A stretch of 64,000 bases of DNA from Candidatus Daviesbacteria bacterium (GTDB lineage Bacteria; Patescibacteriota; Microgenomatia; Daviesbacterales; UBA10151). The DNA lies in assembly GCA_016176335.1 (NCBI GenBank), contig JACOXI010000003.1, positions 194,477 to 258,476 of the forward strand, given 5' to 3'. This document shows positions 5,789-56,528 of the stretch, piece after piece. The notes below the pieces were generated by a model. It was given only the letters and a program-made list of their open reading frames with translations, had not been told where the DNA came from and did not search any database. The position numbers were made by a program, and so were the translations under genes. Numbering within the stretch: the first letter of the stretch is position 1; every line of letters starts with the position of its first letter.

Positions 5789-5995
5789 ATGAAAACACTT
5801 CATATGGTAGCCTTTACCCTGTTGGTGGTTGGTGGTTTGAACTGGGGCCTTTGGGCTTTGTTTAATTTTAACCTGGTTAACACTGTGTTGGGTGCTTGGC
5901 CAACAGTTGAAAAGTTAGTGTACATTTTGGTTGGTGTATCAGCTGTCTACATAGCTGCGACACACATGCAGGATTGTAAAGCGTGTGGAAAGTGA
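5789..5995 (+). CDS. DUF378 family small membrane protein
   Basis: 68 aa, two TM helices, LVVGGLNWGLWALFNFNLV signature; strong SD GAAGGAGGTGAT upstream. Confidence 0.7.
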   Translation: MKTLHMVAFTLLVVGGLNWGLWALFNFNLVNTVLGAWPTVEKLVYILVGVSAVYIAATHMQDCKACGK

Positions 5996-6045
5996 CGCTT
6001 TGCGTCATCCCGAGGAGCCATTAAGGCGACGAAGGATCTGGTAAT
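5993..6045. repeat. GC-rich structured repeat element (copy C) starting at the TGA stop of the DUF378 gene
   Basis: TGACGCTTTGCGTCATCCCGAGGAGCC...GGCGACGAAGGATCTGG; shares ordered blocks with copies at 55141-55185 and 13441-13473. Confidence 0.45.
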
Positions 6046-6054
6046 TATTTTAAT

Positions 6055-6082
6055 CCCGCACCTCATGGTGCGGGATTTTTGT
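6055..6082 (+). terminator. intrinsic terminator (8-bp GC stem CCCGCACC/GGTGCGGG, loop TCAT, T-tract)
   Basis: Perfect stem followed by ATTTTTGTT, 60 nt after the DUF378 gene stop. Confidence 0.6.
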
Positions 6083-12942: not shown

Positions 12943-13539
12943 ATGGGTAAAAAAGCGAACGATCGAATAAATGAAATTATAGGGAAAAATAAAGAGCTCG
13001 AGGCTCAGTTAAAAAGAGCAGTAGCTGATTATCATAATTTGGAAAAAAGAGTATCTGAAGGAAGATCAGAGCTAACTTCTTTTATGGGAGCAGAATTGGT
13101 GAAAAGACTTTTACCAGTATTGGATCATTTAGAACAGGTAGTCGACCGTGGTCGACCTATCCTGAGCGAGCGAAGTGAGTCGAAGGACTGGTTTAGAGGA
13201 GTTGAGCTGGCTGTTAAAGAGTTAAACCAGGTTTTACAATCTGAAGGGTTGGATGAAATATCAGCAGATCCCTCGACTTCGCTCGGGACAGGCTCCGTAT
13301 TTGATCCAAGCCTTCATGAGGCAGTTGACACAAAGGATGGGGAAGATAATAAAATAATAGAAGTAGTCAGAAAAGGTTATAATTTAAATGGAAAAGTTTT
13401 AAGACCAGCACAAGTGATTGTCGGGCGGAAGCAAGACAATCATCCTGAGGAGCGAAACAGCGACGAAGGATCTAGTATGGAAGATTCTGGACAAGCCAGA
13501 ATGACAGAGAACGAAGGATCTGAAGGAAGTACAAACTAA
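12943..13539 (+). CDS. grpE: nucleotide exchange factor GrpE (with C-terminal acidic extension)
   Basis: [10 protein letters not shown]...VELAVKEL...FDPSLHEAV motifs; operon context. Confidence 0.9.
13267..13290. repeat. 24-nt in-frame repeat GATCCCTCGACTTCGCTCGGGACA (second copy in fusA at 50060-50083, 23/24 identical)
   Basis: Direct comparison of the two loci; encodes DPSTSLGT in GrpE and DPSTPLGT in EF-G. Confidence 0.7.
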
Positions 13540-54834: not shown

Positions 54835-55143
54835 ATGCCAAGAGGAAGAATCAGAGTAAAACTGAAAAGTTATGATTATCGGGTGTTGGATCACACCTGT
54901 GAGTCCCTTTTGGATACAGCCCTTCGAACCGGTGCCAAGATTGTTGGCCCAATACCTCTCCCTACAAAAATTGAAAGAATTACTGTTTTAAAATCTCCTC
55001 ATACAGATAAAGATTCAAGAGAAGCTTTTGAAATAAAAACCCATAAAAGAATGATTGATATTGTAGAACCTACCCAAAAAACCATAGATTCCCTGATGCA
55101 CCTTGAGATCCCGGCAGGCGTTGACATTGAAGTTAAGATGTGA
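54835..55143 (+). CDS. rpsJ: 30S ribosomal protein S10
   Basis: RIRVKLKSYDYRVLD...VGPIPLPT S10 signature. Confidence 0.95.
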   Translation: MPRGRIRVKLKSYDYRVLDHTCESLLDTALRTGAKIVGPIPLPTKIERITVLKSPHTDKDSREAFEIKTHKRMIDIVEPTQKTIDSLMHLEIPAGVDIEVKM

Positions 55144-55185
55144 CACTCTGTGTCATCCTGAGGGCGAAGCCCGAAGGATCTCTGA
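55141..55185. repeat. GC-rich structured repeat element (copy A) starting at the TGA stop of rpsJ
   Basis: TGACACTCTGTGTCATCCTGAGGGCGAAGCCCGAAGGATCT: a 5-bp hairpin then an extended hairpin AUCCU-GA-GGGC-GAA-GCCC-GA-AGGAU. The first 27 nt match copy C at 20 of 23 aligned positions. Confidence 0.5.
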
Positions 55186-55192
55186 ACTTGTT

Positions 55193-55468
55193 TCAGATAC
55201 CATCTAAAAGATTCTTAAATGCTGGGTTAATGGTTTTTATAAGTGCCATTTTCCTTTTTCTTGTCCAACCCTTTATTTTCTTCTCTGCGTTTATGGCGTC
55301 CATAACTTGGTCAAATTCTTGATAATAAACTAACTTATTTATATTGTATTTACTTGTAAAGTGATATTTCTTTATTCTATGTTCATGTATCCGACGCTCT
55401 AAATTGTTAGTTACTCCCACATAAAGAGTATTGGATTTATTTGTTAGGATATAAACATAATAAGACAT
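55193..55468 (-). CDS. GIY-YIG nuclease family protein (YhbQ/UPF0213-like, 91 aa)
   Basis: YYVYILTNKSNTLYVGVTNNLERRIHEH = GIY-YIG core with conserved Arg/Glu; reverse strand inside the S10 operon. Confidence 0.8.
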   Translation of the reverse strand: MSYYVYILTNKSNTLYVGVTNNLERRIHEHRIKKYHFTSKYNINKLVYYQEFDQVMDAINAEKKIKGWTRKRKMALIKTINPAFKNLLDGI

Positions 55469-55530
55469 GATTAGAAGTATCTCACATTCGTGAGAGATGT
55501 TTCGCTTCGCTCAACATGACAATTGTCAGC

Positions 55531-55559
55531 TTGCATTTAGATTCAGCCTCTGTTAAAAT
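55531..55559 (+). promoter_or_regulatory. candidate promoter for rplC and downstream r-protein genes (TTGCAT-17-TAAAAT), flanked by ACAATTGTCA palindromic repeats
   Basis: Hexamers with 17-nt spacer. TGACAATTGTCA (55517-55528, perfect 12-bp palindrome) and ACAATTGTCA (55595-55604) bracket it. Confidence 0.35.
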
Positions 55560-55674
55560 TTCCTTACTGATGATTTTATTGTCAGGTTGATTTAACAATT
55601 GTCAATTTTCAGTAGATCGTGCGTCCTACTCCGCGTAAAGCTTCGCAGGATACGACGATTGAAAGCGAGATACT

Positions 55675-55729
55675 GAGTGAGAGCCTGAGTGGTTCGAGTA
55701 CCCTCACCATTGAAGGCCTCACTCTTTTT
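55675..55729 (+). terminator. terminator-like/attenuator hairpin immediately upstream of rplC (GAGTGAGAGCC ... GGCCTCACTC + TTTTT)
   Basis: Arms complementary over 10 nt apart from one unpaired A in the left arm, enclosing a 29-nt interior; U-tract ends 13 nt before the rplC ATG. Confidence 0.45.
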
Positions 55730-55742
55730 AATGCTTTAAATT

Positions 55743-56528
55743 ATGATTAACAGTTTATTAGGAATTAAGAAAAATATGACATCAACTTATGACTCTCGGG
55801 GAAGAAGGGTGGGGGCGACTGTGGTGGAGATCCAGCCTAATTTAGTGACTCAAATTAAGGCAACTGACGGAAAAGATGGATATGATGCAGTGCAACTGGG
55901 AATAGGAAGCAAAAAGTCAGTTAAAAAGCCCCAGCTTGGACACGGTAAAAAGGTGGGAATAGAGAAACCGATCCGCTGGTTTAGGGAAATTAGAATTATG
56001 AATCCCAAATCAAGCTTAGAAGATTTACAGCCTGGACAAGATATAAAACTTGACCAGGTTTTTTCAATCGGAGATGCGGTTAAAGTTAGCGGAACTTCCA
56101 AAGGTAAGGGATTTCAAGGTGGTGTCAGAAGGCACGGATTTCATGGTGGGCCAAAGACTCATGGTCAATCTGACAGGCATCGTGCCCCGGGAGCTATTGG
56201 TTCAGGCACCACGCCGGGAAGAGTTTATAAAGGCAAAAGAATGGCAGGACATATGGGTAATACCCAAGCCAGTATTAAGAATTTGGAGATAGTTGGTTTG
56301 GATAAAGAGAAGAATTTATTGATGGTAAAAGGCGGGATACCAGGTCCAACAGGAAGACTTGTAAAGATTACAAAGTTAGGAAGAATCAAAGGTTACACTC
56401 CACCACCGGAGGAAAAGGTGGAGGAGAGTGAAGAGGGTAAAGGGGAAAGCGTTAAGGGTGAAGAAAAGACAGAAAGTCAACCAACTGAAGAAGCACCAAA
56501 AGAAGGAGAAGAAAATGCCAAAAGTTAA
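55743..56528 (+). CDS. rplC: 50S ribosomal protein L3 (with Glu/Lys-rich C-terminal extension)
   Basis: L3 family conservation; acidic/basic C-terminal tail. Confidence 0.95.
   Translation: MINSLLGIKKNMTSTYDSRGRRVGATVVEIQPNLVTQIKATDGKDGYDAVQLGIGSKKSVKKPQLGHGKKVGIEKPIRWFREIRIMNPKSSLEDLQPGQDIKLDQVFSIGDAVKVSGTSKGKGFQGGVRRHGFHGGPKTHGQSDRHRAPGAIGSGTTPGRVYKGKRMAGHMGNTQASIKNLEIVGLDKEKNLLMVKGGIPGPTGRLVKITKLGRIKGYTPPPEEKVEESEEGKGESVKGEEKTESQPTEEAPKEGEENAKS

Follow-up and report, generated by a model that had tools for sequence, protein, structure and literature searches.

In a 64,000-nt stretch of DNA from a Candidatus Daviesbacteria bacterium (contig JACOXI010000003.1; below, "the window" is this whole stretch), a 388-nt cassette lies at positions 55141–55528 between rpsJ and rplC, the genes of ribosomal proteins S10 and L3. 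Inverted hairpin triplets bracket a minus-strand GIY-YIG nuclease gene in it; the order is outer hairpin, hairpin with tandem G.A pairs (GA-hairpin), third hairpin, GIY-YIG gene, and then the same three hairpins inverted. Copies of the GA-hairpin in the window are named A to E. The features are given here with the scores of R1, a covariance model built from foreign-genome hairpins only and used to scan the window. Loci of other genomes carry L numbers, among them L099, the closest S10 relative (91% identical).

54835–55143, plus strand: rpsJ, co-oriented with copy A; TGA stop at 55141–55143
55141–55155, plus strand: outer mini-hairpin TGACAC-TCT-GTGTCA, marking the left end of the cassette and supplying the TGA stop of rpsJ (sequence and fold)
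55151–55181, plus strand: copy A, TGTC-tagged hairpin ATCCT-GA-GGGC-GAA-GCCC-GA-AGGAT (R1 37.4 bits, E 2e-6)
55181–55197, plus strand: third hairpin TCTGAA-CTTGT-TTCAGA, overlapping the GIY-YIG stop (55193–55195, minus strand; fold)
55193–55468, minus strand: GIY-YIG nuclease gene, 91 amino acids (Pfam PF01541, E 1e-15)
55480–55495, minus strand: third hairpin of the 5′ end, TCTCAC-GAAT-GTGAGA, followed by GATACTTCTAATC and then ATG; inverted counterpart of 55181–55197
55495–55521, minus strand: copy E, TGTCAT-GT-TGA-GCGAAGC-GAA-AC-ATCT = TGTCATGTTGAGCGAAGCGAAACATCT (R1 40.2 bits, E 4e-7, the best in the window)
55517–55528, strand not assigned: outer palindrome TGACAATTGTCA, right boundary of the cassette; L099-homologous sequence resumes right after it, at GCTTGCATTT

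As the 3′ terminal inverted repeat of the cassette, copy A lies 11 nt beyond the GIY-YIG stop and is inverse relative to the gene. Scanning for "stem-GA...GA-stem" hairpins first revealed copy E, which lies just upstream of the GIY-YIG open reading frame (ORF) and forms the 5′ terminal inverted repeat. At both cassette ends the G.A-bearing strand runs 5′ to 3′ into the element, and the stems of the two copies differ by a double compensatory change (ATGTT/AACAT in E vs. ATCCT/AGGAT in A). The accompanying hairpins covary as well. Homologues of the third hairpin in other loci pair as CAC/GTG, CAA/TTG, CAG/CTG, CGA/TCG or CGC/GCG, and the outer TGA..TCA hairpin at gene ends is found as TGACGC/GCGTCA in copy C (see below), TGACCT/AGGTCA in L020, TGATCCGCC/GGCGGATCA in L034 and TGACAC/GTGTCA in L081. 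An earlier note on this DNA, made from the sequence alone, had copy A abutting a GIY-YIG insertion. Copy A does adjoin the gene, which proved the key lead, but the wording undersold the arrangement: copy A and 55495–55521(−) are the two ends of one cassette, whose layout recurs across phyla.

The same intergenic position is empty in some relatives. In L099 the rpsJ–rplC spacer reads ...AAGATG TAA ctccctttgcttcc GCTTGCATTT, where the window has AAGATG (TGACAC...cassette...TGACAATTGTCA) GCTTGCATTT. Like the window, L020, L026, L034 and L044 have a filled site, and L099, L100 and L101 have an empty one; L3 identity is 67% for the empty L099 and L100 vs. 70–74% for the filled L020, L026 and L034. 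Empty sites were obtained via homologue searches; exact-protein look-ups for S10 and for a DUF378 protein encoded elsewhere in the window returned only near-identical loci with the same layout and no empty sites.

The encoded protein consists of the minimal catalytic GIY-YIG domain only. It is by sequence a member of the prokaryotic Slx1-like/UPF0213 proteins, which are stand-alone domains of ~90–100 amino acids, and phmmer against PDB matched it over nearly its full length to 1YWL and 1ZG2 ("UPF0213"; E 1.2e-5 and 1.4e-5). We found 1603 homologues, the closest named Candidatus Daviesbacteria. In an alignment of 16 sequences, residues do not vary at the GIY, YIG, Arg, His and Glu positions of the motifs, which we take to be catalytic. 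The closest homologue (84% identical) resides at another locus, recR/ybaB; homologue sites are varied and unrelated, including the inside of a suf operon and a defence island, and several GIY-YIG copies are present in some assemblies. The family has been read as a mostly vertically inherited repair nuclease, with flanking repeats not mentioned (Dunin-Horkawicz 2006); here its genes are hairpin-flanked.

Hairpins at the ends of the GIY-YIG gene in other bacteria

A genome-collection scan gave 438 relatives; flanks were taken from the best 80, and a strict hairpin test was applied to 79 loci. These come from many groups of the candidate phyla radiation (CPR), such as Daviesbacteria, Gottesmanbacteria, Berkelbacteria, Parcubacteria-type and others, and also from Chloroflexota, Planctomycetota, Acidobacteria, Elusimicrobia and Salinibacter. 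A first, loose detector with a 20% background was replaced by stricter ones, the strict hairpin being defined as TC, five Watson-Crick pairs and GA...GA. Such a hairpin was present upstream in forward orientation in 60 of the 79 loci and downstream in inverse orientation in 46; it occurred on either side in 66 and on both sides in 40. Control segments of the same loci gave 5/748 and 2/748 (<1%), and shuffles 3/1580. Compared with the remaining gene boundaries of these loci, hairpins are enriched more than 100-fold at the two ends of the gene. The orientation and spacing of the flanking hairpins are fixed, and they often overlap the stop codon (TAG/ATCC.., TGA/GATCC..).

The homologue sites at recR-ybaB, after rpsG and at rpsJ-rplC share a common layout: upstream stand GTCAT-stem-GA..GA-stem-ATCTCT, a hairpin and GAGATAC..ATG, and the inverse element comes directly after the stop. 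The motif TGAGATAC-N8/9-ATG is conserved in L001, L003 and L009 and could represent an extended −10 promoter with a leaderless mRNA. We rejected the idea that the cassette is always antisense to its neighbours, which was true of the first four loci; orientations are mixed, and 38 loci are co-directional. Many loci also hold gene-less forward and inverse pairs or tandem arrays. In the flanks of L039, L043 and L078 such arrays are built of identical units, including the outer TGAC..GTCA hairpin, with a period of ~30–50 nt.

Canonical CGTC-tagged repetitive extragenic palindromes (REPs) flank the gene, forward upstream and inverse downstream, in all six of the cultured proteobacteria that were checked: S. 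meliloti, A. lipoferum 4B, N. gonorrhoeae, Sphingobium, Rhizobium and Aeromonas caviae. These flanking repeats are perfect palindromes, e.g., CGTCATCCTCGGGCTTGACCCGAGGATCCA and CGTCATTCCCGCGCAGGCGGGAATCCA. Hairpins matching R1 flank the gene in Planktothrix, Shinella and Spirosoma. The association of the hairpin with the GIY-YIG gene is specific and oriented, and it extends from CPR bacteria to rhizobia, Neisseria, cyanobacteria and Bacteroidota. Word and sequence searches of the literature found no description of a link between GIY-YIG genes and hairpins, and the GIY-YIG–REP association appears to be undescribed in the literature covered by these searches.

Two of these sites may be described individually. 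On the Azospirillum lipoferum 4B plasmid AZO_p3 (L190, 255506–255799), the cassette with its CGTC REPs lies between sufB and sufC of an Fe-S assembly operon, a site that parallels the rpsJ-rplC position in the window. On Planktothrix agardhii plasmid p1 (L186), the cassette lies between an MmeI-type restriction-modification gene and the DISARM gene drmA and is surrounded by three identical forward-inverse doublets, a sign of recent duplication.

Structure, covariation and placement of the hairpins

The earlier note had folded copy A into a small outer hairpin followed by a helix with tandem G.A pairs. We obtained the same fold (z = −3.6) and, beyond it, an additional third hairpin. The copies in the window have a 5-bp stem beginning ATCC/ATGT and ending ..GGAT/..ACAT, tandem G.A pairs, an inner helix of 2–4 bp and mostly 3-nt loops. 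The tag is TGTC in copies A and E and in a hairpin at 13482–13506, CGTC in copy C and AATC in copy B.

For the covariation analysis copies were detected by invariant anchors only (TC[AG]T-NN-TGA...GAA-NN-A[TC]), which guards against circularity. The two free outer-stem positions were Watson-Crick paired in 158 of 185 unique copies vs. 72 expected if they were independent, with CC/GG (89) and TC/GA (60) the commonest pair types, GT/AC (4) and GC/GC (2) rarer, and others besides. The inner segment, diverse in sequence, closes at least 2 bp in 132 of these 158 copies, compared with 15% of shuffles. In alignment A2 (113 sequences) 98% of the cells were paired, and the stems covary strongly (0.414 vs. 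0.156), a value that 0 of 500 shuffles reached; slid controls on the same alignment collapse. Position G2 of the tag is at least 90% conserved in A2, and T3 and C4 never vary, though it was the detection pattern that fixed them. The stem shows A-U in 106 of the 113 sequences and U-A in all 113, again partly fixed by that pattern. The 3′ tail is conserved as CT(C) (A2 columns 31–32) and is CCA in the proteobacterial copies.

Of 139 apices, 64 are triloops, and in half of these a C-G pair closes a GNA loop; CGN(1-2)AG is found in 54 of the 139 vs. 11% of shuffles. GNRA accounts for 3 of 29 tetraloops, and UNCG was not seen among the apices. Copies A and E carry GCGAAGC. Mini-hairpin DNA of the GCGNAGC/GCGNNAGC type is very stable, melting at ~76 °C, and nuclease-resistant (PMC13037366). 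The commonest apices of our family contain this d(GCGNAGC)/d(GCGNNAGC) motif, with its C-G-closed GNA loop and sheared G.A pair; the published motif is a physical-chemistry motif of phage origins and promoters, not a repeat family. A hammerhead-like reading of CUGA..GAA was rejected, as the three-way junction is absent and Rfam gave no match; over the window there were 0 Rfam matches at the gathering threshold, and a search at E up to 10 over 55100–55760 returned one noise match. Copy A is likewise not an intrinsic terminator: a U-tract or terminator-like site is absent from it, and copy C has a separate terminator downstream.

The remaining copies in the window and their host genes are as follows.

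5789–5995, plus strand: DUF378 gene; its TGA stop (5993–5995) opens copy C
5993–6041, plus strand: copy C, a solitary 49-nt insert of outer hairpin and GA-hairpin, subtype "GAGGAG..CGACGA" (R1 match 6003–6039, E 0.2)
12943–13539, plus strand (copy B sense): grpE, with copy B in frame in its tail
13160–13187, plus strand: copy D, tentatively a degenerate older copy inside grpE (weak R1 match, E 5.7)
13269–13292, minus strand: 24-nt in-frame insert in grpE (peptide PSTSLGTG), an inverse short hairpin TGTC-CC-GA-GCGAAGTC-GA-GG-GA
13438–13473, plus strand: copy B, in frame at the start of the grpE C-terminal extension (R1 E 0.004)
13474–13521, strand not assigned: 48-nt in-frame indel in grpE, with an inverse hairpin and a second CGAAGGATCT (13512–13521, duplicating 13464–13473)
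13482–13506, minus strand: the inverse hairpin within the 48-nt indel (R1 E 0.005)

Copies A, B and C have the coordinates and sequences first given for them, and the pattern CATCCYGAGG-N(3-30)-CGAAGGATCT has 3 exact matches in the window vs. 0.00 expected (100 shuffles). R1 recovers all three as well as 55495–55521(−), 13482–13506(−) and, weakly, 13160–13187(+). In 194 kb of S10 control loci it gave only 3 matches with E <1, compared with 5–6 copies in the 64-kb window. The family has further copies in the window and hundreds in other organisms. Of the two outcomes that the earlier note would have taken as refuting it, a lack of more copies and a lack of covariation, clearly neither was obtained. 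A proposal that the three initially described sites resemble one another by chance or through local gene conversion has in its favour the small copy number in the window and nothing else; it is refuted by the absence of chance matches, by the success of a model built from other genomes and by the hundreds of relatives elsewhere, and we give it practically no credence. The surrounding genome, described as AT-rich, is only moderately so, with a GC content of 36–44%.

Copy C sits exactly between the last sense codon of the DUF378 gene and the original TAA (6042–6044) and brings its own TGA. The empty site in L184 (93% identical) reads GGAAAG/TAATTATT/ATCCCGC, the terminator coming after TAATTATT, where the window has GGAAAG/49-nt element/TAATTATT-tta-terminator; the true terminator lies downstream of copy C at 6052–6077. 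In grpE, copy B is common to the relatives P0123, P0127 and P0148 and absent from others. Copy B and the inverse hairpin form the one head-to-head dimer of the window (13438–13506). The 48-nt indel is absent from the near-identical L179, and its core GATTCTGGACAAGCCAGAATGACAGAGAACGA is identical in the more distant L181. The 24-nt insert is missing from L179, L180, L181 and about half of the close Daviesbacteria GrpE relatives, and its peptide DPSTSLGTG is an insertion relative to solved GrpE structures, being absent from all of them. The copy D segment is present in most Daviesbacteria GrpE proteins, with a stretch shorter by 4 amino acids in its place in P0148, P0203 and P0217. Several alternative peptides derived from hairpins mark the GrpE tail as a hot spot. 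Selection on a repeated peptide motif was rejected as an explanation, as the same DNA is read in grpE in two frames and both orientations.

Two further observations concern grpE. A second, unrelated hairpin family (CCCTCCTCCGCTGAAGCTTCGGAGGG; PSSAEASEG / SAEASADKEG) occurs in frame in GrpE of Daviesbacteria relatives (L180:560-620, alignment A3 tails). Beside the 24-nt insert, at 13262–13297, the window has CTCCG where relatives have the reverse complement CGGAG or TGGAG, a flip of 5 nt at the insert junction.

The elements had been thought to begin exactly at stop codons. This holds for copies A and C and for a subclass elsewhere; as a general rule of the family it was rejected, with stop-to-hairpin distances spanning 0–43 nt and all three stops in use (TGA 31, TAA 28, TAG 11). 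A co-oriented open frame ends no more than 45 nt upstream of 70 of 200 hairpins. In ~13 cases the outer TGA..TCA hairpin is solitary, its TGA being the stop of a long frame in 8, and the TGA of copy C serves in the same way. All other outer palindromes mark places where two elements join back to back (..ATGACA nnn TGTCAT..), and such junctions are frequent. The simplest reading of the precise placement at codon boundaries is selection against extending or truncating the host protein.

Relation to known repeats and proposed role of the nuclease

The earlier suggestion of "REP/MITE-like" elements was borne out by the tag, the A-T/T-A stem start, intragenic units and presence/absence differences (MITE, miniature inverted-repeat transposable element). 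A short 3′ tail, of a sequence other than the consensus, and one head-to-head dimer are seen in the window as well. The closest published system is that of the CGTC-tagged REPs (Di Nocera, De Gregorio & Rocco 2013; BMC Genomics 14:522), which have a CGTC or TGTC tag, a stem beginning with A-T pairs and a 3-nt tail, form head-to-head dimers and intragenic units, and are located mainly downstream of genes; members include Neisseria dRS3 and Rickettsia RPE-4 and RPE-6, and they are present in S. meliloti, A. lipoferum and Neisseria. The relatives that we found in proteobacteria have the uninterrupted stem and are textbook members, e.g., CGTCATCCTCGGGCTTGACCCGAGGATCCA. The window copies differ from the published uninterrupted stem of 8–9 bp and loop of 4–5 nt on both counts, have a CT(C) tail instead of CCA, and belong to a CPR subfamily that adds the outer and third hairpins. 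They are a variant of the CGTC/TGTC-tagged REP superfamily outside its four published families. The 2013 paper described these REPs as having no dedicated transposase, its authors having inspected transposase genes only, and named no enzyme; here the repeats bracket a GIY-YIG gene.

The REP/REPIN-RAYT systems (RAYT, REP-associated tyrosine transposase; Nunvar 2010; Bertels & Rainey 2011, PMC3116915) similarly consist of short palindromes occurring as singlets and inverted doublets, with the nuclease gene flanked by its own repeats in inverted orientation, as in the window. New copies arise beside or inside old ones, and the association is long-standing and partly vertical. Their tag is GTAG vs. 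(C/T)GTC here, and their enzyme is an HUH tyrosine transposase of the IS200/IS605 type that forms covalent intermediates, whereas the GIY-YIG enzyme is hydrolytic, so the chemistry of spread must differ. MITEs resemble the gene-less terminal-inverted-repeat pairs (13438–13506; L042, L064, L070, L071 and Planktothrix), but here no regular target-site duplication and no parent insertion sequence of the DDE type were found, and the single hairpin appears to be a unit too. The Rickettsia palindromic elements (RPEs), an account of which is attributed to Ogata et al. in 2000, reportedly form in-frame inserts in coding genes, the classical ones being 100–150 bp long and restricted to Rickettsia. The grpE inserts are likewise tolerated extra peptides, but of 24–50 nt and in a CPR bacterium.

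On balance, we think it probable that the hairpins, as the CPR-type variant of CGTC/TGTC REPs, are selfish hairpin DNA tied to a GIY-YIG nuclease of the structure-specific type. The UPF0213/Slx1-like nuclease is a strong candidate for the partner enzyme that CGTC REPs reportedly lack. More tentatively, and with less than even confidence, it might be the enzyme partner of the whole CGTC/TGTC superfamily, which would then be a pan-bacterial class of selfish hairpin DNA mobilised or maintained by a nuclease. Each element is a short hairpin, probably one of single-stranded DNA, with an unpaired TGTC tag, a 5-bp stem starting A-T/T-A, tandem G.A pairs and an inner helix that varies and mostly ends in a GNA triloop. 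A complete unit is the cassette of ~0.35–0.4 kb, with two inverted copies around a minimal nuclease gene; lone hairpins or pairs without the gene would be non-autonomous derivatives or remnants. By analogy with REPIN-RAYT and Slx1-type enzymes, the nuclease may recognise the folded hairpin and its tag on single-stranded or cruciform DNA and nick the border of the element. Host repair or replication might then copy or relocate hairpins, preferentially beside existing element ends, and copies would persist where harm is small: at stops, between stop and terminator, or in frame in tolerant loops and tails, as in grpE. A DNA-level structure is favoured by covariation over sequence conservation, by the G.A strand entering from both ends, by the DNA-type loops and by the Slx1-like enzyme; inverse and in-frame coding copies, the inverted-repeat geometry and the GNA triloops argue for a primary action on DNA.

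Several points weigh against this interpretation. Of the 79 GIY-YIG loci, 13 have no strict hairpin. GIY-YIG enzymes hydrolyse DNA without a covalent intermediate, so the enzyme itself could not carry out strand transfer. Copy C has no target-site duplication, nor was a consistent one found anywhere; the 48-nt grpE indel has only a 10-nt direct repeat, which could equally stem from a deletion in L179. All window copies are mutually different, which gives no sign of recent activity in the host genome. In copies A, B and C the strand that folds is the one present in the mRNA, as an RNA role would allow. At rpsJ-rplC, nuclease identity (57–77%) roughly tracks that of L3 (61–74%), so long vertical residence or domestication fits there as well as mobility.

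The last point leads to the rival we rank highest, which is still unlikely: a domesticated host system, in which a vertically inherited housekeeping structure-specific nuclease processes REP hairpins or cruciforms, the flanking copies are regulatory or relics, and the family has lost its mobility. The rpsJ–GIY–rplC arrangement has been kept in five lineages with nuclease divergence parallel to that of L3, and the ORF is intact with invariant catalytic-motif positions. Mostly vertical descent was also the inference of Dunin-Horkawicz et al., and RAYTs are likewise seen as domesticated single-copy genes (PMC3116915). Immobility is harder to reconcile with the closest homologue (84%) lying at recR/ybaB and others at sites as unrelated as the suf operon and the defence island, with an empty rpsJ-rplC spacer in L099 and L100 despite comparable L3 identity, and with the several copies in some assemblies and the hairpin indels between near-identical grpE alleles.

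Slightly less likely still is an RNA-level element, i.e., transcribed 3′-end stabilisers or processing signals, as the REPs of E. coli are, combined with 5′ and 3′ control of the nuclease mRNA; the DNA repeats would then simply encode these RNA structures. Copy C lies in the 3′ untranslated region between the DUF378 stop and the true terminator, copy A directly after rpsJ; copies A, B, C and D carry the G.A-bearing strand as sense, and the 70 of 200 hairpins closely following a co-oriented frame point the same way. Many REPs were considered transcribed RNA elements by Di Nocera et al. However, the two cassette ends are structured on opposite strands, so that no single transcript holds both in the G.A form, and inverse copies are found inside grpE. 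GNA triloops closed by C-G are typical of DNA, and the RNA-type tetraloops are rare (GNRA) or unseen (UNCG). There is no U-tract or terminator signature and no Rfam match at E up to 10 other than noise, and an RNA role would not account for hairpins associating so tightly, and in set orientation, with the gene of a DNA nuclease. Copies in 3′ untranslated regions may nonetheless act as RNA in addition.

Free-standing GIY-YIG homing genes between conserved genes are well known in phages, and REPs often insert beside other repeats. We consider it very improbable, though, that the gene is an ordinary free-standing homing endonuclease, with the hairpins as functionally unrelated REPs that accumulate at its borders or mark its preferred landing site. 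I-Tev/Seg-type homing endonucleases join the GIY-YIG domain to a C-terminal DNA-binding module and are typically phage-borne; the window protein is a 91-aa catalytic core without a DNA-binding domain, and no homologue was found among 50,697 phage records. The more than 100-fold enrichment of hairpins at the gene ends, with fixed orientation and spacing and frequent overlap of the stop, also speaks against unrelated repeats.

Bacterial genomes abound in small palindromic repeats, which rank among their commonest unexplained features. The RAYTs supplied a mechanism for the GTAG class, and for the CGTC class the defining paper concluded that there is no dedicated enzyme; the association described here turns the latter question into a directly testable one. 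If the nuclease is the partner of the whole superfamily, an autonomous unit of ~350 nt would be among the smallest known, and mobilisation or maintenance would rely on a hydrolytic structure-specific nuclease instead of a transposase, in a group that includes dRS3 and some RPEs. A large family of "conserved hypothetical/repair" proteins would be re-interpreted. An explanation would be at hand for the peptides inserted in frame, and the tails added at the C-terminus, in GrpE and other essential CPR proteins, and likewise for many of the spurious small ORFs and overlong gene calls found in annotated metagenomes.

Some minor features were noted around the cassette and rplC. Upstream of the GIY-YIG gene there are three occurrences of a TGACAATTGT-like motif (55517–55528, 55578–55590 and 55594–55605), and minus-strand positions 55605..55578 resemble a promoter (TTGACA-16-GACAAT). 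A GC-richer stretch at 55620–55740 is conserved with the empty-site locus L099 (GTGCGTCC..GGATACGAC..) and has 21 extra nt in the window (tactccgcgtaaagcttcgca); it may be a structured rplC leader with a small insertion of its own. The rplC gene (55743–56528) has a long K/E-rich C-terminal tail, overlapped over ~100 nt by the listed rplD frame (GTG 56428), which may be a simple low-complexity extension.

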